Positions 5,114 to 45,095 of a DNA stretch of 64,000 nt are shown one piece after another; within the stretch, counting starts at the first letter, position 1; every line of letters starts with the position of its first letter. The translations under genes were made by a program, and so were the position numbers. This DNA comes from an uncultured Bacilli bacterium. Its GTDB lineage: Bacteria > Bacillota_I > Bacilli_A > RF39 > UBA660. The stretch covers positions 4,839 to 68,838 of the forward strand of contig CAKOPG010000005.1 of assembly GCA_934098745.1 (NCBI GenBank), given 5' to 3'. The notes beneath the pieces are model-generated. The model worked only from the letters and a program-made list of their open reading frames with translations. It was not told where the DNA came from and did not search any database.

Positions 5114-6766
5114 TTATATACATTTAGAATTATCCCTATTATAGTTACCTCCAAGATAATTAACATATTCTTGTATCTTAATCTCCGAGATATCTATCCA
5201 TTTCTTATTAGTAACATAAAAATCAAAATCACTATTACTTGTCATATATATTGGTTCATAAATAATATTTTTAACATTAAAAAGTTCATATGGAATACGA
5301 ATAACCGCATAATAATTAGTATTTGAATATATCTTCCCATCTAATTTATTATATATATTAGCCGTATCATAATCCTTAGAATATACCCTTATATAATTAT
5401 CATTAATACCATAATAACTTCTAAATTTATTATATAAAGATTTCTCAATAACTAAGTCATCTATTGATACCTGATTACCTACTAATATTTCAAAACCATG
5501 TTCCTGCGTATTTTCAGATCCATTATGATGATTACTATAAACTATTTTACTAACACTTCCATAGTATCCAATCGTTAATCCCCTTCTATCTAAATTATCT
5601 ATTGATTTATTACCTAACATCTCTCCATAAGTATCATCATATCTTACCATATATACTTTATACCCCATAGATTCATAACGACACTTTTCATATTTAGATA
5701 TCATTAAATTCAAATCTTTCTCTGCCAATAAACCATTAGATGTTCCAATATCACTTCCCCCATGACCCGGATCTATTACAAAATCATACTCATACTTAAA
5801 ATCTTCTACTTTAACACTTACATAATCATTATCATACATCAAAGTTACTAATTTATTTTCGATCTTTCCTCTAACTAATCTATTAAATACATTTAATTTA
5901 TTTAATAATCTTTCTTCTTGATTACTAACTATATAAATATCATATACGCCATTCTTTACCGTTGTAAAATCTATATTACCACTATAATAATTAGTATTAT
6001 CTAAAGTCATATTAAATAAATATACCTGTTTACTATCTCTATTCTTTAACTTAATCTTATAATTATTAGCATTATCACTAACATATCCCTCTAAATATAT
6101 TCCCTTACTATTAAATACATTTCTAGTAACAGTATTTGAATACTCCTTAACATTATAAGAATTAACATTAATAATACCACTTGTCTTATCGCCTAATGTA
6201 ATTGTAGGATTAACTACTTTAACTATTCTCTTTACTGAAGAAGAATTACCACTACTATCACTAACTGTATAAGTAATAGTATATTCCCCCTCATGTGAAG
6301 TATCAACATTACCATCTACTTTTACCCGATCAGTAATATCTTTATCATAATTATCTATTGCCCTATATCCATATTCATAGTAATTACCATTGACAAGTAT
6401 CTTAACCTCATTACCATCTACAAGGTCTATCTCTGGTTTGATCTTATCAATAACTATAACTTTTCTATATATATATTCACTATTTCCATTAATATTAACC
6501 AAATATTTTACCTGATACTCCCCTAATTTAGACATATCTACATTACTATTATCAATCTCTACCTGATCAGTAATATCTTTTCCCTGATATAAAACATTAA
6601 CCCCATATTCTTCATATTCAGTATTGACATCTACATATAAAGGACTAGGACCAATAAGCTTAAATTTAGCATTCGTATCATCTTCATACGAAAAAGAATA
6701 AGTCACACTAATTAAACTTACTACCATTAAAAGAATAAAAGTTGTTACATAGTAATATTTTCTCAT
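5114..6766 (-). CDS. N-acetylmuramoyl-L-alanine amidase (Amidase_3) with N-terminal Ig-like repeats
   Basis: N-terminal signal/anchor. Repeated Ig-like segments (GEYQVKYLV.., GEYTITYTVSDSSGN). C-terminal FVIDPGHGGSDIGTSNGLLAEKDLNL is the Amidase_3 core. Start is taken at MRKYYY; the track gives 6778. Confidence 0.7.
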   Translation of the reverse strand: MRKYYYVTTFILLMVVSLISVTYSFSYEDDTNAKFKLIGPSPLYVDVNTEYEEYGVNVLYQGKDITDQVEIDNSNVDMSKLGEYQVKYLVNINGNSEYIYRKVIVIDKIKPEIDLVDGNEVKILVNGNYYEYGYRAIDNYDKDITDRVKVDGNVDTSHEGEYTITYTVSDSSGNSSSVKRIVKVVNPTITLGDKTSGIINVNSYNVKEYSNTVTRNVFNSKGIYLEGYVSDNANNYKIKLKNRDSKQVYLFNMTLDNTNYYSGNIDFTTVKNGVYDIYIVSNQEERLLNKLNVFNRLVRGKIENKLVTLMYDNDYVSVKVEDFKYEYDFVIDPGHGGSDIGTSNGLLAEKDLNLMISKYEKCRYESMGYKVYMVRYDDTYGEMLGNKSIDNLDRRGLTIGYYGSVSKIVYSNHHNGSENTQEHGFEILVGNQVSIDDLVIEKSLYNKFRSYYGINDNYIRVYSKDYDTANIYNKLDGKIYSNTNYYAVIRIPYELFNVKNIIYEPIYMTSNSDFDFYVTNKKWIDISEIKIQEYVNYLGGNYNRDNSKCI

Positions 6767-6830
6767 TCTAAACACCAACTATTCTAATATAATTTTATCA
6801 TAATTTCAATTTCTAGTAAATATCTATAAT

Positions 6831-7715: not shown

Positions 7716-9611
7716 TCAATATACTACCTTCTTATACGTATCATAATAAATTCCATTTATAATTATATATAAAGCATATTCCCCATGTCCTAAATTAATA
7801 TTTATATTCTTTTCAACATCCTTTAACTCATCCTTGTAATTAATAATATAACTATTACTATTTTTACCTACCAACAATATATCTACCTTATCATACGTAT
7901 CAAACTTATAATCAGTATCTATAACATACTTTGTATAACTAATATTATTTTCATATTTCTTAGCACTATCTAATTTATCACTTATCTTTCTAGTATTAAT
8001 CTTTTCTACCTTAGATAAATCCATCGTATTATAGAAATTACTATCTACATAACTAAAATTACTCATCTTATCCATATATAAACCATGTTTAAATATTCTA
8101 TACTTTCCATCTTCTATCGTAGCTTCTAATAATATTTCATCCTTATCATTAACTTCAAATATTTTAGCATAAGTATTATCTGTATTTTTTTCACTCTCAC
8201 TAAGTGTAGCATCTGATCTATTCCTGTAGTCATCCTTTAAAACCCAGCCAAAATTCATTAATTTATTACCATCATAGATATTAAATGAACCGTATTGATG
8301 AGCAAAATATTTTTTATCACCATCAAAAGACCATACCAAACTAGCTTTTTTAGAATCTATTCTATATAATTCCATACTACTATAACTATCCTTATAAGAT
8401 ATAACATCATCAATTCCACCTACTTCAAAGCCATTATATCTATCATATCCATTATTTATAAATCCTATTAATCCATCTGATGTAACCATTACCGAATGAA
8501 TACCTAAAGGATATCGTCCACTTTCTAAAGTTACCATATATTCATCAAATTTATCACTATATATTCCCGGAGGAGCAAAAATATAATTTAATTTTTTAGT
8601 ATTATAATTAATACTAACTATTGAATTTAATCCTCTTAATGAAACTATTAATTCTCCTGTTTTCTCATTATAAGAAAAAGCATTTCTAATTATTTTGTAA
8701 CCAAGTCTATTATCATCAAATTCTGAATCTATATCTTTAAATATCTTATATAAATCTACATAACTAATAAACTTTCCAGTATTATCTATTTCATATATCA
8801 TTGCATGTTTATAAAATATGGGTTCTTCTCCTCCACATAACATATAATTACCATTTGAAAGAACTTGAAACTCAAAATCATAACCATTTCTTAAAACATA
8901 ATAATTATATATCTTACCTAAATAATCCATTTCTACAAAACCAATTTTTCTATCATTGACACTTCCTTCAGGAATACCTACTAAAAAATGTCCATTATCA
9001 AGCCATTCAAAATCCATTACATATTTTTCAGTTAAATACCATTTTAAATTGCCATTAATATCATATGCTGAAGCACTAGTTCCTACAGGACTAGTCATAA
9101 AATATAAATCATTATAATTACTAAAAACAGCTTTATCTATAACAAGATCATTAACATCTATAGCCTTATCTATCTCTATATCAATCTTCTTAACGTTACC
9201 TAAATCATCTGATAAAGTAATATAATTAACTCTTCCAGAATACATTCCATATACTGGAATTATATGCTTTGTATCTTCTTCCATTATAAAATTATATTCA
9301 TCATTAATACTTACCTTAATACTTGTATTATTAACACTACTAAATATTATTAAAGCTGTCATTGGTGATATTTTATAAGGATTTACTATAACTTTAGGAT
9401 TATCAATCGTATATTCTAAATCATTACTATATTTCTCTATTTCTTTATTAATTTTTTCCTGTTCTACTAAAACATTCCCTATAGCATAATTAACATCCAT
9501 CTCTTTATCGAAATACTTTTTACCATAATCCTTAAAAAATATCAACCATATAAGTATAATAAACAATATAATAATTAAAACTAAATATACTAATTTTTTT
9601 ATTTTCTTCAT
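7716..9611 (-). CDS. Arylsulfotransferase (ASST)-like beta-propeller protein, membrane anchored
   Basis: N-terminal TM, then ..DNPKVIVNPYKISPMTALIIFSS.., which resembles the ASST N-terminal domain. It is a paralog of the next gene. Start is taken at MKKIKK, preceded by AGGTGA; the track gives 9632. Confidence 0.5.
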   Translation of the reverse strand: MKKIKKLVYLVLIIILFIILIWLIFFKDYGKKYFDKEMDVNYAIGNVLVEQEKINKEIEKYSNDLEYTIDNPKVIVNPYKISPMTALIIFSSVNNTSIKVSINDEYNFIMEEDTKHIIPVYGMYSGRVNYITLSDDLGNVKKIDIEIDKAIDVNDLVIDKAVFSNYNDLYFMTSPVGTSASAYDINGNLKWYLTEKYVMDFEWLDNGHFLVGIPEGSVNDRKIGFVEMDYLGKIYNYYVLRNGYDFEFQVLSNGNYMLCGGEEPIFYKHAMIYEIDNTGKFISYVDLYKIFKDIDSEFDDNRLGYKIIRNAFSYNEKTGELIVSLRGLNSIVSINYNTKKLNYIFAPPGIYSDKFDEYMVTLESGRYPLGIHSVMVTSDGLIGFINNGYDRYNGFEVGGIDDVISYKDSYSSMELYRIDSKKASLVWSFDGDKKYFAHQYGSFNIYDGNKLMNFGWVLKDDYRNRSDATLSESEKNTDNTYAKIFEVNDKDEILLEATIEDGKYRIFKHGLYMDKMSNFSYVDSNFYNTMDLSKVEKINTRKISDKLDSAKKYENNISYTKYVIDTDYKFDTYDKVDILLVGKNSNSYIINYKDELKDVEKNININLGHGEYALYIIINGIYYDTYKKVVY

Positions 9612-9618
9612 CGCTTCA

Positions 9619-11433
9619 TCACCTAATATCAAATACTACTCCCGTATCATAATACTTACCATTAATTATAATATATATTGCATATTCTCCCTTTATTTTT
9701 GATATAAAATCATTCAAATATAAATATCTATATCCATCATTTTTCATGCTTATTTTATAAAAATTATAATCTTTATTTACAAATAACACCTGATAATCCT
9801 CTGAAGTATCAATCTCAATTCCTAACTCTTTAGATACCTTAATCATTCCCCTATCTATTAAAGCTCCCTTTAATTTATTATAAATATTATCTTTATAAAG
9901 AGTTAAATCTTTCTTTTCTCTCTCCACAGCTTCTTCTTCATTATCTGCTTCAAAATAATAAACCTTCTTATAATTATTAGCATCTATTTTTTTAAAATCA
10001 TTATTAATATTATAATTACTTGTTACATCATTATAAAAATTATATCTTCCTGATTCATATATTAAAATATTTTTATATTCAGTAACCAACTCCATCGTTA
10101 TATTATTATCCTTATCAAGTTCAATTACTTTAGAATACTTCCCTCTATCATCATCAACAATACTACCAAAATTAATATGTTTAATATCCTTATAAACATA
10201 AAAATTACCATACCAACCAGACGCTACATCACCAGTATATCGATATACTTCATATAAATTATCTCCTTTTACTTCATATATAACTGCTGAAGATTTATTT
10301 AAAGAATTAAATGAATTATTATCATTAAAATAACAATTACTATTATCAAAAACATATAAATAATCCCCATCCATATATGGTGAATGTTGTCCTATAAAAT
10401 AAGTTACATCATTAGATAAATTCAACTTATATTCATTAAATTTATCAGAAAAAACTGAATTATTAGTAATCATCCATATAATCTTTTCATTAACTAAATC
10501 ATATTTAATAATAGTATCTAACCCTCTAATAGATATAAGTAACGTTTTATTAACTTCATCATATTGAAAATGATTCATATAAACTATCTCATTAGTAATA
10601 TCTATATCTTTATCTACATTCATTAAAACATCAATTAAATTAAATACTGTTTCTACCTTACCTGTTTCATAATCTATTTCTGATATTGAAAAAGAAGAGT
10701 CAATAGCCATTATATTATTATTACTTAATTTAACTATTTGATGATTATTACTAGTTAAATAAACATAATACATTCTTGTAACTCTTCCCATAAAATCAGT
10801 CTCTAAAAGCCTATTATATCTATCTAACAAATATATTTTTTTATCATCTGTAATAATAAATTCATAATTACCATTATCATTATACCAATTAATATTACCT
10901 TCTCCATCTAAAGAAAACTTCCCCATTGGAGAATTTATAAATAAATTATCACTAATATCTCTAGTAGAATTATATTTATACATAATACTACTATCTATTT
11001 TATTAGTCTTAATATTAATTTTCTTCTCCTCGTTTTTATTATTTATAATAACTATCTCATTATTATATTCTTCTTTAAGTCCATATACCGGTATTATATG
11101 TTCATGTCCACTTTCCATAGTAGTTATAAAATGACCATTTATATACAACTTAATTTCTGTATCTTCCTCTGTATAAAATATTATCATTGCTGCTAACTTA
11201 GAATTGTTATATGGATCAACTACAACCTTAGGATTATCAAAAGTGATATTCTTATCATTGACATAACTTTCTAATTCAGAATTAACAATTAATTGATTAT
11301 CTTCATAATTAACACTATAATTATAAACTTTTTTATCTTTAAATAAAAACTCTTTATTATTTATATTAATTACTATACCACCAATTAATAAAATCACCAA
11401 CAAAATAATCATTATCCATTTTTTACTATTCAT
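9619..11433 (-). CDS. Arylsulfotransferase (ASST)-like protein, paralog of 7716-9611
   Basis: Same architecture and collinear motifs (DNPKVVVDPYNNSKLAAMIIFYT; C-terminal ..GEYAIYIIINGKYYDT..). Start is taken at MNSKKW, preceded by GGAGG; the track gives 11463. Confidence 0.5.
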   Translation of the reverse strand: MNSKKWIMIILLVILLIGGIVININNKEFLFKDKKVYNYSVNYEDNQLIVNSELESYVNDKNITFDNPKVVVDPYNNSKLAAMIIFYTEEDTEIKLYINGHFITTMESGHEHIIPVYGLKEEYNNEIVIINNKNEEKKINIKTNKIDSSIMYKYNSTRDISDNLFINSPMGKFSLDGEGNINWYNDNGNYEFIITDDKKIYLLDRYNRLLETDFMGRVTRMYYVYLTSNNHQIVKLSNNNIMAIDSSFSISEIDYETGKVETVFNLIDVLMNVDKDIDITNEIVYMNHFQYDEVNKTLLISIRGLDTIIKYDLVNEKIIWMITNNSVFSDKFNEYKLNLSNDVTYFIGQHSPYMDGDYLYVFDNSNCYFNDNNSFNSLNKSSAVIYEVKGDNLYEVYRYTGDVASGWYGNFYVYKDIKHINFGSIVDDDRGKYSKVIELDKDNNITMELVTEYKNILIYESGRYNFYNDVTSNYNINNDFKKIDANNYKKVYYFEADNEEEAVEREKKDLTLYKDNIYNKLKGALIDRGMIKVSKELGIEIDTSEDYQVLFVNKDYNFYKISMKNDGYRYLYLNDFISKIKGEYAIYIIINGKYYDTGVVFDIR

Positions 11434-11482
11434 AAATACCTCCAAGAAAGAAAAACCGTACATATCAGTACGATTATCACAT

Positions 11483-12078: not shown

Positions 12079-12555
12079 TTACCTCCTTATATCATAAGTA
12101 ATATTTTCATCTTGAAAATCATTTCCATGAATTGAACTAATTATAAAATAACCCGCAATAATTAAAACAACTACAAATATAATAGACATTATAATTATCT
12201 TAAGTTTTTTATTATTATCTTTAACTAACGTATAAGGTGAAGCAATTTCTTTTTTATCTGTTTTTTCACTCTTAGCCTTTTCTATTTCCTCAACAGGTAT
12301 CTTTGAAGTAAAATCAAATAAAAATTCATTAAATTCATCCACCATTTTCTCGCCATCTAATCCCAAATATTTAGCATAGTCTCTAATAAAATACTTTAAA
12401 AATACTACATCTTTAAAATCTTCTTTTTTACCTTCTTCTAAACTAACTATTTGACTAGGTCTCATCTTTAAATCTTCCGCCGCTTCTTCTACCGAGACCC
12501 CATTAGCTTCCCTTTTTTCTTTTAATTTTAAACCTATATCTTTCATTTTCCTCAT
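12079..12555 (-). CDS. RodZ-like HTH (XRE-type) membrane protein
   Basis: N-terminal HTH (LKEKREANGVSVEEAAEDLKMRPSQIVSLEEG) and one TM near the C-terminus. The start is uncertain (12555 or 12546). The longer track start at 12612 runs into the RNase P RNA. Confidence 0.6.
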   Translation of the reverse strand: MRKMKDIGLKLKEKREANGVSVEEAAEDLKMRPSQIVSLEEGKKEDFKDVVFLKYFIRDYAKYLGLDGEKMVDEFNEFLFDFTSKIPVEEIEKAKSEKTDKKEIASPYTLVKDNNKKLKIIIMSIIFVVVLIIAGYFIISSIHGNDFQDENITYDIRR

Positions 12556-12604
12556 TCCAATTAAATAATAAACTATCTTATAAGCCACATTCTGTACCGT
12601 AATT

Positions 12605-12922
12605 GGTGACAAACATTTATCTATGAGTTACCTCATCCATTTTATAGATTCTTATTCTCCTAAAATAGTTCCCCTACCATAATTTGGGTTTCTCACTTGT
12701 GGGGTTTACCGCGTTTCACCCTATACATTTCTATATAGATTCGTCTCTGTGGCACTTTATATCTACCTAGTCATAGATATACTCCTTAGACTATAGTAAA
12801 TGCCGTCAAGTTATTAACTTGCCATCGGTTATTTTTTCCCTTTGCACAAACATTACTATCATCACAGATAGTGTGAGTGTGGACTTTCCTCTAAGTATTT
12901 CTACCCAGCGTTTGTCCAGATA
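12605..12922 (-). ncRNA. rnpB: RNase P RNA, bacterial type B (compact)
   Basis: The minus strand reads ..GAGGAAAGTCCACAC.., ..AAAGTGCCACAGAGACGAATC.., ..GGTGAAACGCGGTAAACCCCACAAGTGAGAAACCCAAATTATGGTAGGGGAAC... A terminal P1 pairing GACAAAC (about 12916-12910) / GTTTGTC (12614-12608) closes the structure. It sits next to gpsB, as in B. subtilis. Ends are accurate to about 5 nt. Confidence 0.85.
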
Positions 12923-12924
12923 AT

Positions 12925-19213: not shown

Positions 19214-21016
19214 TTACTCTATTACTAAAACCGCACGGAAGCCAGGGTACATGTACGTATCGCCACTAGTGTAGGAGAAGAAGAAGACACCGGCACTGAC
19301 ACCATTGCTATAGTCACCACCACGACGGAACCACGGGAACTCGGAAGAAACAAAGTTCGCGTAATCTCCATACCATCTACTTGTTTCCGATAAGCCTCGT
19401 CCATAGCAATAGCCCTCATTACATGCCGTTAAAGCATTCATAGTTGTGCCACTACTTGCCTTGTATACTTCATAATACTTAGATTCCGGAAAAGATACAC
19501 CATCGGTTTTAGTGATACCATCAGTTCCAAGCAATCCATTAAATCCCGAATTAGAGGAAGTAGAAGACCCACTCCATAAGGTACCATTGGAATTAGCAAA
19601 TACTCCCATGACATATTCCCTTGCTCCTCCCGACATATCAAAGATTCCTGATATATTACCGGTCGTACTTTGCGGATATGTTGAAGAAGCACCATAAGTT
19701 ATTCCGCATGTTGTACTTTGACCGGCATCAGCTGTACTAGCTCCGCATCCGGTAAGTGTTTGATTATTATTCCGGTAATTATTAATTCTTACCTCACTAT
19801 TTATTCCATACTTAGAGTGCGATAGATAAGCTACTGCTCCCCATTCATTATTCTTCATCATATGAGAATTAGTGCTTGTGGTTAATCCATATGTATTACT
19901 GCCAGAAAATGTTGTAACTCCATTATTCAAAGTTCCCCCAGCAAATTTTAAACTAGTAATAAATTCCGTTGATATATTTTGATCAGTTAATGATGCCATA
20001 TTAGGTTTTATCGTCGGTGTTGTACCATCACCGGTTGTTTCAAATTTACCTACCCAAATGCCATTTAATTCCGTATCCCCAAAAGTAAATGCCGGATGGG
20101 TTAGATACTCTCCTACCTTAGTTCCTACTGACTTTGTCGTATCTTTATCTTCAAAAATAATCTCTATCTCTTGTTCTTGTCCTTTAGTACTTGTACCGAT
20201 TGTCCATATTTTATACTTATATCTTGGTATCCAAACATAATATGCTAAAATATTACTTTCCGGTATTGTTACCCCTGTGGTATTTTGATAAGTACTCCTT
20301 GTTGAAGAATCCACTAATACGGCATTGGCCCATTCTTTTTTATCATAATTAAACCAAGAAGTATCATCTTTTGAAATAGTTGTAACTGTCCCATTATCAG
20401 TTATCGTTACTGGAATCATCCCTTCCATTACATCGGGAGTAATTGATACCTTATCAGTACAACTTCCACCAAGGGATAAACTAACTGCTTGATTCATTGT
20501 ACTTGCACTTGTTTCTTCCTTATCTAACCATATCCATAAATAATACGTATCTGTTGTTGTTAAAGCATATCCCATATTTTTCAAAAGATTTACTTTATCT
20601 CCAGCTTTTAACCCTTTAAAGTTACCACTTTCTAAAGCATTTTCACAACTATCAGCACTTGTTGTTAGAGCATATCTAAAATTATCACTATTAGACAATC
20701 CATCCCCTATTTCATTTATATTTAACCATAAATCCATATATACTGGAGTTGGTGTAATTATATTAGGCATTACTTTTATTTCTCTTTTGATGGCATACTT
20801 ACTATTTGTACAACTACATGGTACTAGGGTAACATCACTAGAGGTAATATCACCACCACCATCAGCCGCACAACTAAAATCACTCGTTACTGTAAATACT
20901 ACTTTAGTTCTCTCCCCTTCGGTAGCATTCCATGTAAAATAAGCAAATGTACTACCTATAATTACAAATATTAATGATATGATTAATAATATAATAATTA
21001 CTCTTTTATTCTTCAT
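19214..21016 (-). CDS. Secreted/surface protein, paralog A: TasA/CalY-type signal peptide + N-module (type 1) + C-terminal FGE-sulfatase/C-type-lectin-like head
   Basis: N-terminus MKNKRVIIILLIISLIFVIIGSTFAYFTW resembles the CalY signal GGGTFAYFSD. C-terminal motifs NEWGAVAYLSHSKYG, GNISGIFDMSGGAREYVMG, RRGGDYSNG and GFRAVLV resemble FGE-type domains. The C-module is collinear with 27856-29637 and the N-module with 38948-40510. Confidence 0.75.
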   Translation of the reverse strand: MKNKRVIIILLIISLIFVIIGSTFAYFTWNATEGERTKVVFTVTSDFSCAADGGGDITSSDVTLVPCSCTNSKYAIKREIKVMPNIITPTPVYMDLWLNINEIGDGLSNSDNFRYALTTSADSCENALESGNFKGLKAGDKVNLLKNMGYALTTTDTYYLWIWLDKEETSASTMNQAVSLSLGGSCTDKVSITPDVMEGMIPVTITDNGTVTTISKDDTSWFNYDKKEWANAVLVDSSTRSTYQNTTGVTIPESNILAYYVWIPRYKYKIWTIGTSTKGQEQEIEIIFEDKDTTKSVGTKVGEYLTHPAFTFGDTELNGIWVGKFETTGDGTTPTIKPNMASLTDQNISTEFITSLKFAGGTLNNGVTTFSGSNTYGLTTSTNSHMMKNNEWGAVAYLSHSKYGINSEVRINNYRNNNQTLTGCGASTADAGQSTTCGITYGASSTYPQSTTGNISGIFDMSGGAREYVMGVFANSNGTLWSGSSTSSNSGFNGLLGTDGITKTDGVSFPESKYYEVYKASSGTTMNALTACNEGYCYGRGLSETSRWYGDYANFVSSEFPWFRRGGDYSNGVSAGVFFFSYTSGDTYMYPGFRAVLVIE

Positions 21017-21034
21017 AATTACCTACTTTCTATA

Positions 21035-21058
21035 TCCCTAAGTATAATACTTAAGGAC
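21035..21058. repeat. Inverted repeat, gene-proximal (switch A)
   Basis: TCCCTAAGTATAATACTTAAGGAC is the exact reverse complement of 21206-21229, and it is itself a near-palindrome. Confidence 0.9.
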
Positions 21059-21147
21059 CCTTTTGTATGTATGTAAATACCTTATATCATAAGGCTTTAA
21101 GACATATTTTAAGAAATATAAAAGTAGATAAAAAGTCAAATTTTGTA

Positions 21148-21176
21148 TTTACATAAAACCAGTGTCATGCTATAAT
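21148..21176 (+). promoter_or_regulatory. Sigma-A-type promoter inside switch A
   Basis: TTTACA-17 nt-TGC-TATAAT (extended -10) on the plus strand. Confidence 0.7.
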
Positions 21177-21205
21177 TTATATAGGGTAGATAAAGATAAA
21201 GGTGT

Positions 21206-21229
21206 GTCCTTAAGTATTATACTTAGGGA
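21206..21229. repeat. Inverted repeat, gene-distal (switch A)
   Basis: GTCCTTAAGTATTATACTTAGGGA is the reverse complement of 21035-21058. Confidence 0.9.
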
Positions 21230-21263
21230 CATTTTTATATTATTTAACTACTTAAAAATAATC

Positions 21264-21294
21264 GAAAAAAAGAAACTTAAAGTTTCTCTTATAA
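21264..21294 (-). terminator. Terminator of the 155-aa gene; right copy of the 31-nt direct repeat
   Basis: The plus strand reads GAAAAAAAGAAACTTAAAGTTTCTCTTATAA. On the minus strand it is a hairpin plus T7, 21 nt after the stop at 21316. Confidence 0.65.
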
Positions 21295-21315
21295 CAATTC
21301 ATATATAAATTATTT

Positions 21316-21783
21316 TTATTTAAATTGATTTTTTTTCAAAGTTTTCGTAGTACAAGTAACTGTTTTTCCGTCACCCATATATACGCATGAACTTGATCCA
21401 TCACCATTATCTACACAATCTGAGGAATTAGGACAAAATAATAAATCATTTTTATCTTGTTCGTTCATATTTCCCATTGCTACAATTACAATAATTATTG
21501 AAACCAAAAATACAATTATAGAACCAACTAATCCTAATATGGCAAATACTTTTCCTTCTTGTTCTTTCTTTTTAATTTGTGATAAAGCAACTATTGATAA
21601 AATAAACGCTAATAACAAAGACAAATCACCTATAATTGTCACTACCGTATTGTTAGTAAATTGCAAAATAATTGACAATATTACCAAACCAAATGAAATA
21701 ATACCTAACTTGTTTTTTTCTCCTTTTACTAAAGATTCTTGTGGTGTTTCATCATGAAACACAATATTGTTTTCATCGTCCAT
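21316..21783 (-). CDS. Small membrane protein with a Cys-rich C-terminal tail
   Basis: 155 aa with several TM helices. The tail reads CPNSSDCVDNGDGSSSCVYMGDGKTVTC. It is the last gene of the rhomboid/ABC/M13 string. Confidence 0.5.
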   Translation of the reverse strand: MDDENNIVFHDETPQESLVKGEKNKLGIISFGLVILSIILQFTNNTVVTIIGDLSLLLAFILSIVALSQIKKKEQEGKVFAILGLVGSIIVFLVSIIIVIVAMGNMNEQDKNDLLFCPNSSDCVDNGDGSSSCVYMGDGKTVTCTTKTLKKNQFK

Positions 21784-27855: not shown

Positions 27856-29637
27856 TTATTCTGAAATATTTATAGATACTGCACGAAAGCCATCCAAATT
27901 ACGTCCAGAACCATAACTATTATTATAGTGAAATCCGCCGCCACTAATACCAGAACTATAACATCCACCACGACTAAGCCATGGTCCAGATGCTGAAACA
28001 AAAGTCGTATAATCACCATACCAGTTGTTTACTTCAGCTATTCCATGTCCATAGCAATATCCTCCATTACATGCTGTTAATTTATTAATTGTTGTGCCAC
28101 TACTTGCTTTATACATGTCATAATATTTACTTTCCGGAAAAGTTACTCCGACAGTTTTTGATGTTCCATCAGTTCCAAGTGCTCCCTTAAATCCAGAATT
28201 ATATGTCGTGGAAGTACCACTCCACAATTTAGAAGATGAATTGGCAAACACTCCCATTACTATTTCCCAAGTTCCTCCCGACATATCAAAAATACCGCTT
28301 ATATTCCCTGTTGTACTTTGAGGATACGCTGAAGTTGAACCATAAATTATTCCACATGTTGTACTTTGACTTTCATTTTCCGTACTGGCCCCACAACCAG
28401 TCAATGTTTTATTATTACTCCAATAATTATTTATTCTTATTTCATTATTTATTCCATATTTAGAATGTGATAAATAGATTACTGCGCCCCATTCACTATT
28501 TTTCATCATATGACTATCACTACTACTATCTAGTCCATATATTTTACTTCCAGAAAAAGTTGTTGTACCGTCGTTAAGTGTTCCTCCGGCAAATTTTAGC
28601 GATGTTTGAAACTGATCTGACGTATTTTGACTAGTTAGTGATGCATTATTTGGTTTTATCGTCGGTGTTGTAGCATCACCGGTTGTTTCAAATTTACCTA
28701 CCCATATTCCATCTAATTCTTTATTTTCAAATGTGAAAGCTGGATGAGTTAAATACTCTTCTACCTGAGTTCCCGTAGATTTTTCTGTATCTTTATCTTC
28801 AAAAACAATCTCTATCTCTTGTTCCTTGCCTTTAGCACTAGTACCTACAGTCCATATTTTATACTTATATCTCGGTATCCAGACATAATATGCTAAAATA
28901 TTATCTTCTGGTATTGTTACCCCACTGGTATTTAAATAACTACTTCTTGATGTTTCTGTTACCAGTACCGCATTAGCCCATTGTTGTCTATTATAATTAT
29001 ACCAAGAACTATCATTACTAGATACAGTCGTAACAGTGCCATCATCAGCAATAGTCACCGGTATCATCCCATCTAATAAATCAACCACAACCGCTTGACC
29101 ATTATAAATGCTGGCATTAAGTTCGGCTTTAAAAGTCTTTCCCTGTATATTAGAACTAGTCGCATCATTTCCATCTAACCAAGTATAAACTTTATAATTA
29201 TACTCTTTTTCAGCCGGTATAATTTCTTCCAATATAATAAAATCATCTTCTATATTCGCACTAGCAAAATTACCTTCTTTATATTCGGTATAATTATTAC
29301 CACCATCAATACTTCTTAAAATCGTATATTTAAAAGCAGATACAATTAATTCATTATCTATTTGTTTAATATCATAATAAAGTTTTACTTCTCCATCACT
29401 TCTACCACTATTTTTAATATTTACATCTATTGCTGAAGTACTACTATAAGTCAATGTTGGTACTAAAGTTTCCTCCACTACATAAGGCTTTAAAGTAACT
29501 CTTATTCCGTCTATATCTCCCACCGTTAGTACTAAAGCTGTTTCCTTACTTTTCCATGTAAGCCATGCCAAAGTCCCCACAAAAGAAATGATTATTAATC
29601 CTAAAAGTATTAGTAAATAAAGTTTTTTCTTATTCAT
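27856..29637 (-). CDS. Secreted/surface protein, paralog B: TasA/CalY-type signal + N-module (type 2) + FGE/lectin-like head
   Basis: N-terminus ..IIISFVGTLAWLTW... From MIPVTIADDGTVTT to the C-terminus (GFRAVSI) it is collinear with paralog A. Confidence 0.75.
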   Translation of the reverse strand: MNKKKLYLLILLGLIIISFVGTLAWLTWKSKETALVLTVGDIDGIRVTLKPYVVEETLVPTLTYSSTSAIDVNIKNSGRSDGEVKLYYDIKQIDNELIVSAFKYTILRSIDGGNNYTEYKEGNFASANIEDDFIILEEIIPAEKEYNYKVYTWLDGNDATSSNIQGKTFKAELNASIYNGQAVVVDLLDGMIPVTIADDGTVTTVSSNDSSWYNYNRQQWANAVLVTETSRSSYLNTSGVTIPEDNILAYYVWIPRYKYKIWTVGTSAKGKEQEIEIVFEDKDTEKSTGTQVEEYLTHPAFTFENKELDGIWVGKFETTGDATTPTIKPNNASLTSQNTSDQFQTSLKFAGGTLNDGTTTFSGSKIYGLDSSSDSHMMKNSEWGAVIYLSHSKYGINNEIRINNYWSNNKTLTGCGASTENESQSTTCGIIYGSTSAYPQSTTGNISGIFDMSGGTWEIVMGVFANSSSKLWSGTSTTYNSGFKGALGTDGTSKTVGVTFPESKYYDMYKASSGTTINKLTACNGGYCYGHGIAEVNNWYGDYTTFVSASGPWLSRGGCYSSGISGGGFHYNNSYGSGRNLDGFRAVSINISE

Positions 29638-29707
29638 ACAAGCACCTATATATGAGTCTTCAAAATTATCTTTTAAGAACCCATTACTTTCCTATTTTTC
29701 TATCTAA

Positions 29708-29736
29708 ATTATAGCATAACCATATTTCTTTGTAAA
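29708..29736 (-). promoter_or_regulatory. Fixed sigma-A-type promoter for paralog B (same promoter family as in the switches)
   Basis: The minus strand reads TTTACA-17 nt-TGC-TATAAT, followed by TTTAGATAG, similar to the switch promoters. Confidence 0.65.
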
Positions 29737-38947: not shown

Positions 38948-40510
38948 TTAAGCAATTGTATATGGATTGCTCCTTGTACCAGTTCCCTCTAATTTAATAT
39001 TTTGTTTAAGATATACTACTGGCTGAACCCCATACACATTATCTACACGATAATCTGCCGGATAATTAGTACCAACACGACCATTGCTACCCACAAAAAA
39101 TACCGTATGTATATAACTTGAAAATGGAGAAATAGTAAATCGTGAGTTAGATGAATTAAATAACCATGAATTACTTGGTTTAGCTCCTTGATCCGTATAA
39201 CAAACATTCATATTATTATAACACGTATCATCAACACCATTTGCAAATGTATAGCTATAATCTGATGGATACATTAATCCGACATATCCATCCCAGTTTA
39301 ACTCTCTATTTGTTGGAACTGTAGTTCCTCTTTCTACAGTATACCAATCACTCGCTCCTTTGGTAGTATTATTCGTTCCTCCCAAATAATATGTTACTTC
39401 ATCTATTTGCGATAATGCCTCATTATTTAATGTCCATGTATTTTTTTTACAACTATATGCTGTTGCCCTAGCTGCAATACTTGCAGGCTTACACCCAATT
39501 TGATACATTATATACCCATTAGCACCTTTTATATAATTTCCATCTAAAGTATATCCCGTTTTTAGCTTATATGTTGTTGGGTTTAACATATACATTAATT
39601 GTGAATCTGTCCAATCATTTGAACCAGAATCACCCGTTGATGAACCAACCGCAAGAGTTTTATAATCAAAATACATACTACCAATAGATGCATCTTTTAT
39701 TATTTTTATTCTTCCATCAAATACTCCAATCATTCGCCATACTTCATTATTATATGTTATATAATTATTAGGCACATTTCCGATATATCTATAATCTGTT
39801 AAAGCCTCTGTTTGCTCTGTTGCTTCATGAGAAAATGTCCACATTTCACCTTTTTCAGTATCCGTTGCTTCAGTATACGTCAACGTACTCGGATTAGCTT
39901 TTTCTATAAGTTTCTGCGCATTTAATAACAACTTATCAGCACAACTTCCATTTAACGATAGACTAAATGTTTGGTTCATTGTCTCACTACTAGTTTCTTT
40001 AGCATCTAACCATATCCATAAATAATACGTATCCACAGTCGTAGATGTATAATCTTTTACATTTAATAAATTTATTTTATCTCCAACTGTTTTGCCCTTA
40101 AAATTACCAGATGAAATAACTCCTAAAGTATTACTAGTACTATTCGTTGTAAAAGCATACATAAAATTATCACTATTAGTTAAACCCGTTCCTATATCTT
40201 TTATATCTAACCATAAATCCAGATAAATAGTTTTACCACTCTTAGTAATTGTTGGGGTAACTTTTACTTCCCTTTTTATATAATTACCAGTTGTACTACT
40301 ACTTACTGTGGTAGGTATTAACGTTACATCATCTGGTGTTATATTACCTCCACCATCAGCCGCACATCTAAAATCACTTGTTACTGTAAATACGACATTA
40401 GTCTTCTCGCTTTCAGATGTTTGCCAAGATAAATAGGCAAAAGTACTACCTACAATTATAAGTATCAATGATAATACCACTAAAATAATAGTCATTCTTT
40501 TACTTTTCAT
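38948..40510 (-). CDS. Secreted/surface protein, paralog C: TasA/CalY-type signal + N-module (type 1) + a different C-terminal head
   Basis: MKSKRMTIILVVLSLILIIVGSTFAYLSW. Residues up to ..LSLNGSCADK are collinear with paralog A. The remainder (..WRMIGVFDG.., ..YGVQPVVYLK..) is unrelated to the A/B head. Start is taken at 40510, since GGAGGAAATT precedes that ATG; the track gives 40522. Confidence 0.75.
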   Translation of the reverse strand: MKSKRMTIILVVLSLILIIVGSTFAYLSWQTSESEKTNVVFTVTSDFRCAADGGGNITPDDVTLIPTTVSSSTTGNYIKREVKVTPTITKSGKTIYLDLWLDIKDIGTGLTNSDNFMYAFTTNSTSNTLGVISSGNFKGKTVGDKINLLNVKDYTSTTVDTYYLWIWLDAKETSSETMNQTFSLSLNGSCADKLLLNAQKLIEKANPSTLTYTEATDTEKGEMWTFSHEATEQTEALTDYRYIGNVPNNYITYNNEVWRMIGVFDGRIKIIKDASIGSMYFDYKTLAVGSSTGDSGSNDWTDSQLMYMLNPTTYKLKTGYTLDGNYIKGANGYIMYQIGCKPASIAARATAYSCKKNTWTLNNEALSQIDEVTYYLGGTNNTTKGASDWYTVERGTTVPTNRELNWDGYVGLMYPSDYSYTFANGVDDTCYNNMNVCYTDQGAKPSNSWLFNSSNSRFTISPFSSYIHTVFFVGSNGRVGTNYPADYRVDNVYGVQPVVYLKQNIKLEGTGTRSNPYTIA

Positions 40511-40526
40511 AATTTCCTCCATTATA

Positions 40527-40551
40527 TCCTTAAGTATAATACTTAAGGACC
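40527..40551. repeat. Inverted repeat, gene-proximal (switch B)
   Basis: TCCTTAAGTATAATACTTAAGGACC is the exact reverse complement of 40697-40721. Confidence 0.9.
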
Positions 40552-40579
40552 TACCTCTATCTTTATTTAACCTATATAA

Positions 40580-40609
40580 ATTATAGCATAAGTGTTTATT
40601 TTCTGTAAA
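40580..40609 (-). promoter_or_regulatory. Sigma-A-type promoter inside switch B, reading toward paralog C
   Basis: The minus strand reads TTTACA-18 nt-TGC-TATAAT. Confidence 0.7.
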
Positions 40610-40696
40610 TATAAAATTGAATTTTTAAAGGTTTTTGAAACATGTAAAATATCTCATAAGTCTTTATAATGTAAGGTATTAGGCTACATACAAAAG

Positions 40697-40721
40697 GGTC
40701 CTTAAGTATTATACTTAAGGA
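40697..40721. repeat. Inverted repeat, gene-distal (switch B)
   Basis: GGTCCTTAAGTATTATACTTAAGGA. The palindrome extends to 40723. Confidence 0.9.
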
Positions 40722-40781
40722 CCTTTTTTATATAAAAATATATTAAAGAAGTGTATTTAACACTCATCTATTAAAGTTATT

Positions 40782-43661: not shown

Positions 43662-45095
43662 TCAATTTTCTTTTAAAGCCTTTTTTAAATCCATAATTAA
43701 TTTTTTATCAAACTCTTTCTTCTCTTCATCCGTCATTTCGCTCCAATTTTTATTACGATTTTTTGACTCAAAAACTGTTCCTAATGGATAATCAGTACCA
43801 TTGTATTTCTTTTGTAAATTTTGTTTATTCAATGTACCTATATTAACCGATTCAATGTTTTTAACATTACCATCTGGAAAAGCAATTGCAATACTTTGAG
43901 TAAAATGACAATCTAAATTTTTTAGTCCAGCCGTTTTTTTCTGAAGATATAGCCAAAAATCTTCATTCGTCGCATTATCTCCTAATTCTCCTGCCCATCT
44001 TCTCGTAGCAACTCCTGGCTCACCATTTAATTCATGAATATAAAACCCTGTATCATCACCAAGAGTAATTAATCCTGTTAGACTACACCATGTACGTGCT
44101 TTAGCAATAGCATTTTCTCTAGACGATGTTAATCCTTCAGTAATATTAACATCATATGGATAATCTTTAATTGTCTTAATTATAAATTCATCGCCTAAAT
44201 ATAATTTATAATCAGCTATTTTTGCAGAATTTTTACTAGCCAATAATATAGTTTTTTTATCATAATTTGAAACTAATGGTAAAAAACGCTTTTTTATATA
44301 TTCTGTGTATTCATGTAAATTATTATAATAAGGAACCGTTATTAATAACTTTAAATTATAATTAAAATTATCTTTTATTTTATTAATAATTATTCTTTCG
44401 ATATCCAATCTTTTTGATATAGTTATATTTTCTAAATCTTTTGAATCTCTTACAAATAACAACCATGGTTCGATTCTTCTTTCTAAAAATGTCTTAATAC
44501 ATGATTGAATTGTTTTTGTCTTAACATATTCACCATTATATGCTGATTCAGTTAATAAAATAACTTTAGATAGTTTTTCAGCATTTAATCTTTGAATCAT
44601 CGGAGTAAATATAGGATCAACTTCATAATCTGTAATTAACCCTCCTACTTCTATAAAAAGTTTTTGTGGTTTTCCAATATCATTCCACATTTTATGAATA
44701 CGATATTCAACATACAAAGACATATGAGGATTTATTTGTAAATTCTCATTTTCTCCATAATTTTTTATGAAATCACTATATAATTCTCCTCCTAAAAGAT
44801 AATGTTCTCTTCCCCATCTTTTTCCAGTATTAAACGCTTCATATATACCAAAATCATCATGTCCTACTGCCGTATGACGACCATTTTCATTGGTATTTAA
44901 TAAACCATCAAATTTAATTGCATCTGAATTCTCAGTATTAGCTAATAATTGTGCTACCAATGTCCCCTTACCAATATCTGAACGTGGATAACCTAAAATA
45001 AAATAATATTCTGTTTCATTATCCATTGGTTTGTACAAATTTATTAAATTTTGTAATTCTCTTATTGTTTTTCTATTTTCATATACACTACTCAT
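43662..45095 (-). CDS. Fusion protein: CTP-synthase N-terminal (amidoligase) domain homolog without GATase + Ham1/RdgB-type NTP pyrophosphatase domain
   Basis: The N-terminal half matches CTP synthase at three places: ..GYPRSDIGKGTLVAQLL.. (compare SSLGKG), ..IKFDGLLNT.. (compare QKFDPYINVD), ..IEVGGLITDYEVDPIFTPMIQ.. (compare EIGGTVGDIES.PF.EA.RQ). The C-terminal half has ..TILLASKNSAKI.., ..LGDDTGFYIHELNGEPGVATRRWAG.. (compare DDSGL.VDAL.G.PGV.SAR). Confidence 0.65.
   Translation of the reverse strand: MSSVYENRKTIRELQNLINLYKPMDNETEYYFILGYPRSDIGKGTLVAQLLANTENSDAIKFDGLLNTNENGRHTAVGHDDFGIYEAFNTGKRWGREHYLLGGELYSDFIKNYGENENLQINPHMSLYVEYRIHKMWNDIGKPQKLFIEVGGLITDYEVDPIFTPMIQRLNAEKLSKVILLTESAYNGEYVKTKTIQSCIKTFLERRIEPWLLFVRDSKDLENITISKRLDIERIIINKIKDNFNYNLKLLITVPYYNNLHEYTEYIKKRFLPLVSNYDKKTILLASKNSAKIADYKLYLGDEFIIKTIKDYPYDVNITEGLTSSRENAIAKARTWCSLTGLITLGDDTGFYIHELNGEPGVATRRWAGELGDNATNEDFWLYLQKKTAGLKNLDCHFTQSIAIAFPDGNVKNIESVNIGTLNKQNLQKKYNGTDYPLGTVFESKNRNKNWSEMTDEEKKEFDKKLIMDLKKALKEN

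Follow-up and report, generated by a model that had tools for sequence, protein, structure and literature searches.

The element at 21035-21229 of the window, by which we mean the whole 64-kb stretch of DNA analysed here (64,000 nucleotides), is very likely to be a site-specific invertible promoter (inverton) that was captured in its OFF orientation. It belongs to a multi-copy inverton family serving paralogous surface-protein genes; the mechanism is classical and the kind is already known, and the points of added interest are arms that seem to double as terminators, natural variants of the arm centre, and an association with a DGR in a close relative. From sequence features we infer promoter activity, termination, a recombinase and its family, and present-day switching in the strain. 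The parts of this element, hereafter switch 1, and its target gene are as follows.

21035-21058, unstranded: gene-proximal arm of switch 1, TCCCTAAGTATAATACTTAAGGAC, perfect 24-nt inverted repeat
21059-21205, unstranded: invertible segment of switch 1, 147 bp, promoter pointing away from the gene (OFF)
21148-21176, plus strand: predicted promoter of switch 1, TTTACA at 21148-21153, 17-nt spacer ending in TGC, TATAAT at 21171-21176
21206-21229, unstranded: gene-distal arm of switch 1, GTCCTTAAGTATTATACTTAGGGA, perfect 24-nt inverted repeat
21204-21242, plus strand: terminator-like site, distal-arm hairpin followed by a TTTTT run (called at 21204-21232)
19214-21016, minus strand: target gene 1, 600 aa, with an N-terminal hydrophobic anchor/signal, a beta-rich domain in common with target gene 2 and a C-terminal fold like that of a DGR variable protein

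As a whole, switch 1 measures 195 bp. Its perfect 24-nt repeats lie around 147 bp at the coordinates that the initial annotation had given for them, and when extended beyond the perfect stretch they match over 27 nt at 96%. The promoter agrees with the consensus at 11 of 12 positions (promoter and terminator calls throughout are consensus matches only) and carries a TG at 21168-21169 (-15/-14), which makes it an extended -10 promoter; as had been claimed, it lies on the strand opposite to the 600-aa gene and points away from it. The ATG of that gene, at 21016 on the minus strand, was likewise correctly placed 18 nt outside the left arm. The further claim that no other recognisable promoter occurs between the repeat and the ATG stands for strong sites, the promoter at 21148-21176 being the sole strong match within 20800-21500, and must be qualified by one weak, 9/12 promoter-like match at 21168-21140 on the minus strand, which lies inside the segment, faces the gene and is at chance level.

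A chance origin of the arms is excluded. Perfect inverted repeats of 20 nt or more, spaced 30-600 nt apart, arose in none of 60 Markov simulations, as against two loci in the real window. The arm motif was found four times in the window (both strands were scored, and the motif is palindromic) against an expectation of zero in shuffled sequences, and its occurrences are always pairs around the switch promoter.

The second of these pairs belongs to another whole cassette, switch 2 (40527-40721), which lies ~19 kb from switch 1 and is built of the same parts, turned the other way round with respect to its own, paralogous gene.

40527-40551, unstranded: gene-proximal arm of switch 2, 25 nt, perfect repeat
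40552-40696, unstranded: invertible segment of switch 2, 145 bp, promoter pointing toward the gene (ON)
40580-40609, minus strand: predicted promoter of switch 2, TTTACA-18 nt-TATAAT with TG, codirectional with the 520-aa gene
40697-40721 (palindrome 40697-40723), unstranded: gene-distal arm of switch 2, 25-nt perfect repeat and 27-nt perfect palindrome
38948-40510, minus strand: target gene 2, 520 aa from an ATG preceded by GGAGG (the first in-frame ATG, at 40522, would give 524 aa)

When the segments of switches 1 and 2 are each read toward their own gene, they yield a local alignment score of 26 and share four 8-mers, whereas with one of them reverse-complemented the score is 106 and 23 8-mers are shared. 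Because the segments match well only in the latter arrangement, at least one arm-bounded inversion separates the two loci. This agrees with the initial annotation, in which 40552-40696 was described as the homologous segment, reversed relative to a homologous downstream gene, and at least one of the two loci was held to have flipped exactly at the repeats. The flanks outside the proximal arms, which contain the ribosome-binding sites, are alike at both loci; the arms of the two switches are identical at 22 of 23 positions, and the interiors at 76%.

The arms have an internal architecture of their own. The 23-nt core of the switch 1 arm, TCCCTAAGTAT-A-ATACTTAAGGA (also written TCCTTAAGTAT-A-ATACTTAAGGA), is a palindrome with one asymmetric central base, and each arm can be described as two inverted half-sites of about 10-11 nt around an asymmetric centre of 1-3 nt. 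The centre is TAA, TAT or TTC depending on the locus, and in every cassette the centre of one arm complements that of the other; in one lineage the half-sites themselves have diverged (GTACTAAAGTA-TTC-TACTTTAATAC). A matched change of centre at the position of the hairpin loop is not needed by a terminator or an operator, and it fits the crossover region of a site-specific recombination site. These observations bear on the alternative that the repeats recombine by RecA-type homologous recombination and that the arms serve mainly as terminators or operators, which we regard as very improbable. Each arm does form a stable hairpin, the distal arm plus T-run is scored as an intrinsic terminator, and solitary look-alike hairpins in unrelated genomes are plain terminators. 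However, arms of 23-27 nt are very short as a RecA substrate, the half-sites and the asymmetric centre have been kept where the arm sequence has changed, the loop-position centre co-varies between the arms, which neither a hairpin loop nor an operator requires, and the arms are found only in pairs around this promoter. A site so well defined, with palindromic half-sites and natural centre variants, makes the search for the cognate invertase and experiments on its specificity straightforward.

Related metagenome contigs supplied ten further cassettes of the same design, and a MAG yielded one more. The 12 loci compared occur in both orientations, eight OFF and four ON, counts that compare paralogous loci and not one population. 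Cassettes of this design are present in at least three sequence-diverged lineages; their invertible segments are 145-149 bp long, and the promoter is kept in all cassettes of the clade.

The closest view of an inversion came from contig L018 (ENA ERZ28614532 scaffold_3043), which carries three tandem paralogs with one cassette each. There, switch 3 (12251-12444) is the exact reverse complement of switch 2 of the same contig (9791-9984) over 194 of 194 nt. The 441 nt upstream of the two switches (distal flank) are identical, and the ~36 nt downstream (proximal flank) differ at two positions. A single-nucleotide difference between the arms, at position 20 of the distal arm and position 4 of the proximal arm, is swapped in switch 3; as it moved with the segment, the crossover must have fallen within arm positions 1-19. 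The copies of switches 2 and 3 are separated by zero substitutions, so the inversion is very recent. The L018 pair also weighs on the idea that the cassette is a MITE-like mobile promoter with terminal inverted repeats, inserted independently in either orientation. The element is indeed short (~195 bp), ends in inverted repeats, and exists in many copies and both orientations, but the L018 pair has near-identical flanks with the element exactly inverted in place. There is, moreover, no target-site duplication, the flanks just outside the arms not being direct repeats, and every copy in the clade occupies one and the same place with respect to the ribosome-binding site of a paralogous gene, with homologous proximal flanks. 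Copies are absent from the viral contigs scanned, and three matches in JGI metagenomes are solitary terminator-like hairpins. We consider independent insertion to be the least credible of the readings weighed here, and return to the inverton.

Contig L022 (scaffold_10219), which comes from the same sample as L018, shares exactly 55 nt with the end of L018 (L018 12426-12480, L022 1-55) and continues from this overlap into a different gene, P0004. Since L022 enters a distinct gene, switch 3 of L018 cannot be a duplicated path of switch 2 but is a locus in its own right. Another contig, L020, contains two switches, and its start lies inside an arm; L022 and L020 (1-20) begin at the same arm position, directly after the orientation-dependent base. 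Such shared contig starts at the arm would fit, without proving it, an assembly-graph branch caused by mixed orientations in the reads.

A scan of genome contigs with the arm motif returned one MAG with the same cassettes (L001, L003 and L004) and one unrelated terminator hairpin (L002). The MAG, CAZEVZ01, is labelled Muribaculaceae; its three contigs have a GC content of 28-29%, the same arms and a related promoter cassette, and the label is probably a binning or naming error. The cassette of L003 precedes a gene whose visible N-terminus has no obvious likeness to the family of the 600-aa protein, and two of the contigs of this MAG end within the cassette. The three arm-motif matches in JGI metagenomes were rejected as cassettes. 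A degenerate palindrome of 21 nt should, by our own estimate, give about that number of matches, ~3, by chance. The scan of viral contigs with the arm motif gave zero matches, and the arm sequence was absent from the literature searched.

Within the species of the window, each locus was seen in one orientation. The two contigs that include locus 1, the window and L005 (a 99%-identical strain), have it OFF, and the four that include locus 2, the window and L007-L009, all have it ON. The protein cluster of locus 2 contains only 520-aa and 534-aa gene calls (three gene-call lengths), all of which fit the ON state. Orientation-specific N-terminal extensions or small ORFs at locus 2 were considered as a sign of the other state and rejected, the protein database having only the 520/534-aa calls, both of the ON type. 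Exact-protein look-ups of neighbouring genes thus revealed no orientation polymorphism at the same locus among the inspected contigs of the species; they returned no record for the 600-aa protein of the window or for P0006 and P0009. Assemblies report the majority state, so a constant orientation weighs little either way.

It could nevertheless be proposed that these are fossil switches, descended from an active inverton, with locus 1 now fixed OFF, locus 2 fixed ON, and the invertase lost or silent. The constant orientation in every inspected contig of the species speaks for this proposal, as do the lack of a recombinase in the 64 kb and a third paralog that is already without arms (see below). 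Set against it are the perfect 24-25-nt arms, kept while the interior fell to 76% identity; the intact 600-aa ORF, 99% conserved across samples, which would be hard to maintain behind a promoter that is permanently OFF; and the close relative with an inversion so recent that zero substitutions separate the copies. On balance we find the fossil reading improbable.

The surroundings of locus 1 vary among strains. Upstream of switch 1, L005 has a Mur ligase gene, as against DUF4190 and M13 peptidase genes. None of the four contigs that contain the SpoU gene of the window (L014-L017) reaches switch 1; three of them end in or just beside the 600-aa gene, and the fourth has a different upstream gene. 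Judged by this gene order, locus 1 appears to be a hotspot of rearrangement or strain variation.

The initial annotation had also called for a search for a recombinase. No tyrosine or serine recombinase (Phage_integrase, Resolvase) was found in the window with Pfam, run on nearly all ORFs of at least 150 aa, or with NCBIfam; for the few window ORFs outside the Pfam scan, orthologs in related loci are annotated with other functions. None was found in precomputed Pfam annotations of ~120 kb of related loci, nor among selected ORFs beside the MAG cassettes. Since neither the window ORFs scanned nor those tested beside the cassettes include a recombinase, the invertase is probably the product of a gene elsewhere that acts in trans, in keeping with the multi-locus systems of M. 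penetrans, B. fragilis and C. difficile (RecV; PMC2268961, PMC9286219). Half-sites that surround a short centre of odd length, together with a segment of 145-149 bp, would suit a tyrosine and a serine invertase alike. We lean slightly toward the tyrosine type because of precedents in Firmicutes and Mollicutes, and offer this as a lean and not as a result.

The arms may have a second function in termination. At switch 1, the terminator-like site formed by the distal arm lies ~30 nt downstream of the OFF-facing promoter and is the only such site within 20800-21500; the fold of the distal arm has a free energy of -22.3 kcal/mol (z = -4.3). At switch 2, the distal arm has a T-run outside (40724-40729) and CCCTTTTGT inside, and a terminator is called there on the minus strand, downstream of uvrB; in either direction the arm resembles a terminator, also for transcripts that read through from uvrB. 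Counts of T in the 8 nt that follow the hairpin differ by side, as follows.

Distal arm, outward side: 5-7 T, at 11 of 12 loci
Segment, promoter-distal end: 5-6 T, in 12 cassettes
Side facing the gene: 2-4 T, in 12 cassettes

The arms would, on these counts, double as intrinsic terminators that insulate the cassette. A more elaborate scheme, in which, with the switch OFF, the reverse complement of the leader would supply a U-tract behind the distal arm and so block read-through from upstream, was rejected because the T counts there are only 2-3 of 8.

We propose the following mechanism. The 147-bp segment carries a single, outward-reading promoter of the sigma-A type together with a conserved leader, and a recombinase encoded elsewhere would bind both palindromic arms, exchange strands near their centres and flip the segment. 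In the ON state, read-through from upstream would be halted, and the cassette's own transcript alone would pass the proximal hairpin, which lacks a U-tract, and go on to the ribosome-binding site and the gene. With the switch OFF, the promoter would fire away from the gene, and its transcript would probably end at the distal-arm hairpin and T-run ~30 nt further on; this termination would keep the outward transcript from entering the neighbouring gene. With one switch for each paralog, a cell could display different subsets of anchored or secreted proteins.

The window contains two switched paralogs and one paralog with a fixed promoter. The N-terminal ~210 aa of targets 1 and 2 are 56% identical, and their C-terminal parts differ. 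The third paralog is described by two features.

27856-29637, minus strand: third paralog, 593 aa, 57% identical to the 600-aa protein
29655-29736, minus strand: fixed copy of the switch promoter and leader before the third paralog, TTTACA at 29736-29731, TATAAT at 29713-29708

A degenerate palindrome occupies the place of the proximal arm at this third gene, and the distal arm is missing; its promoter looks like a locked-ON, non-invertible relative of the switch.

The label of surface protein, which the initial annotation had given to the 600-aa product, is reasonable in view of the N-terminal hydrophobic anchor/signal, the beta-rich ectodomain and the C-terminal fold matching a DGR variable protein. 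An AlphaFold model built with 37 homologs (mean pLDDT 79) has an N-terminal helix (residues 2-29), then a domain rich in beta structure, and a C-terminal domain. The best PDB match of the model in Foldseek was TaqVP of Thermus aquaticus (5vf4; E = 3e-7, probability 1.0, TM 0.46 on the target), and the family profile matches the same 5vf4 chain by sequence (E = 7e-4). The hydrophobic N-terminus ends in GSTFAYF, a motif that we take to resemble the signal peptides of the SipW type (TasA/camelysin). Inspection of the sequence after this N-terminus revealed no lipobox cysteine, and a surface lipoprotein was for this reason rejected as the product. It is reasonable to regard the switched proteins as membrane-anchored or secreted, with a predicted lectin-like or DGR-variable-protein-like fold. 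Residues 5-89 of target 2, read as 38948-40522 (minus strand), gave a weak, sub-threshold NCBIfam match to 'Mfer763 family' (E = 4e-4). More than 8000 relatives of the 600-aa protein are present in the database, nearly all of them in ENA metagenome assemblies; none bears a functional name, very few have a Pfam domain, and PF03781 is found in a few. A very large, unannotated protein family can thus now be marked as phase-variable surface proteins with a lectin-like fold.

The link to a DGR is directly visible in contig L022. P0004, whose product is 77% identical to the 600-aa protein of the window, lies behind switch 3, which is ON, and a complete DGR follows downstream of it.

L022 1701-1816: VR
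L022 2034-2149: TR
L022 2762-4146: bAvd and RT

This layout, with an ON switch, P0004, VR, TR, bAvd and RT in succession, places a switch and a DGR at one locus in the relative. In the VR/TR pair, 116 nt long, 17 of 18 differences fall at adenines of the TR, and in the same assembly (ERZ28614532) at least four more switched paralogs have 3' ends that differ from the TR of L022 mainly at adenines. A VR-like 3' end is likewise seen in the window gene (19230-19383, minus strand), with 17 of its 25 differences from the L022 TR at adenines; the GC-rich 3' tail of this region is truncated. Neither a reverse transcriptase (RVT domain) nor a TR copy was found in the window, and the VR-like region at 19230-19383 is identical among the contigs and cluster members seen in the species. 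Going by these sequence features, the window gene would be a relative or former target of a DGR and not a demonstrated current target.

We tentatively suggest, as a possibility to which we give somewhat less than even weight, that one gene family is subject to both promoter inversion and DGR mutagenesis, each paralog of a multi-target family of DGR variable proteins having a private ON/OFF inverton. If so, two programmed mechanisms of variation would be stacked on one gene family, and cells would differ in the set of lectin-like surface proteins on display and also, by way of the DGR, in what these proteins bind. The two major DGR surveys that we searched make no mention of inversion or phase variation.

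The host has a GC content of ~27%, and its loci carry genes for the cell wall and for sporulation (PBP, FtsW, MraY, SspI and Coat_F); it is known only from gut metagenomes, for example Hadza samples. Judged by this gene content, the host appears to be an uncultured, spore-forming Firmicute. A clean multi-copy inverton family is thereby added to a gut Firmicute lineage of ~27% GC that forms spores, is uncultured and has not been reached by culture-based study. Rfam has no family for the cassette and gave a single match in the window, an RNase P RNA of class B at 12576-12923 (minus strand, 267.6 bits), the type of low-GC Gram-positive bacteria. Two other observations on the window concern neighbouring genes: at 7716-11463 (minus strand), two tandem arylsulfotransferase (ASST) paralogs adjoin a surface Ig-like/amidase protein (5114-6778), and at 43662-45095 (minus strand), a single ORF of 477 aa joins a region like the N-terminus of CTP synthase to a Ham1 (ITPase) domain, an unusual fusion.

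Several known systems can be compared with the family described here. In fimS of E. coli, with its recombinases FimB and FimE, inverted repeats likewise surround a short segment with a promoter of the sigma-70 type that drives a surface-structure gene in one orientation. That system has one locus, 9-bp repeats and a 314-bp segment, and its recombinase genes are adjacent; the present one, in contrast, comprises many loci with long palindromic arms and segments of 145-149 bp, with no adjacent recombinase found. As to the products, the model and the family profile of the 600-aa protein match the DGR variable protein TaqVP (PDB 5vf4), and PF03781 occurs in some homologs; unlike DGR systems, the window is without a reverse transcriptase and TR, and its VR-like region is invariant among the samples seen.

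In Bacteroides fragilis, promoters of polysaccharide and surface-protein loci are inverted by a global, unlinked invertase, as outlined in PMC2268961 and PMC10403206. The likeness lies in promoter cassettes that share inverted repeats over the chromosome and in the combinatorial surface variation of a gut commensal; the phylum, the type of promoter, the repeat sequence and the products (proteins here, capsule operons there) are different. Clostridioides difficile offers a case among Firmicutes, in which one unlinked tyrosine recombinase, RecV, acts on several loci (cwpV, flgB and pdcB) and RNA-level termination adds to the OFF state of some switches (PMC9286219, PMC7446863). Those invertible elements, like the present ones, are ~150-200 bp long and lie upstream of surface or signalling genes; unlike them, the window cassettes have a different arm sequence, carry the promoter inside the segment and are repeated in the same form before each paralog of one gene family.

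The last system to be compared is the mpl (P35) lipoprotein family of Mycoplasma penetrans, in which each gene has one invertible promoter (Horino et al. 2003, from the summary in PMC2268961), and in which, according to the same summary, recombinases act on several loci. The window proteins differ in not being lipoproteins, and the host differs in having cell-wall and sporulation genes (PBP, FtsW and SspI); the arms of the window are palindromes of 23-27 nt with unrelated sequences, and no linked recombinase was found. In both families, nevertheless, paralogous surface-protein genes, scattered or in tandem, in a low-GC host related to or belonging to the Firmicutes, each possess their own short invertible promoter cassette, which is switched independently in M. 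penetrans and would be so here.
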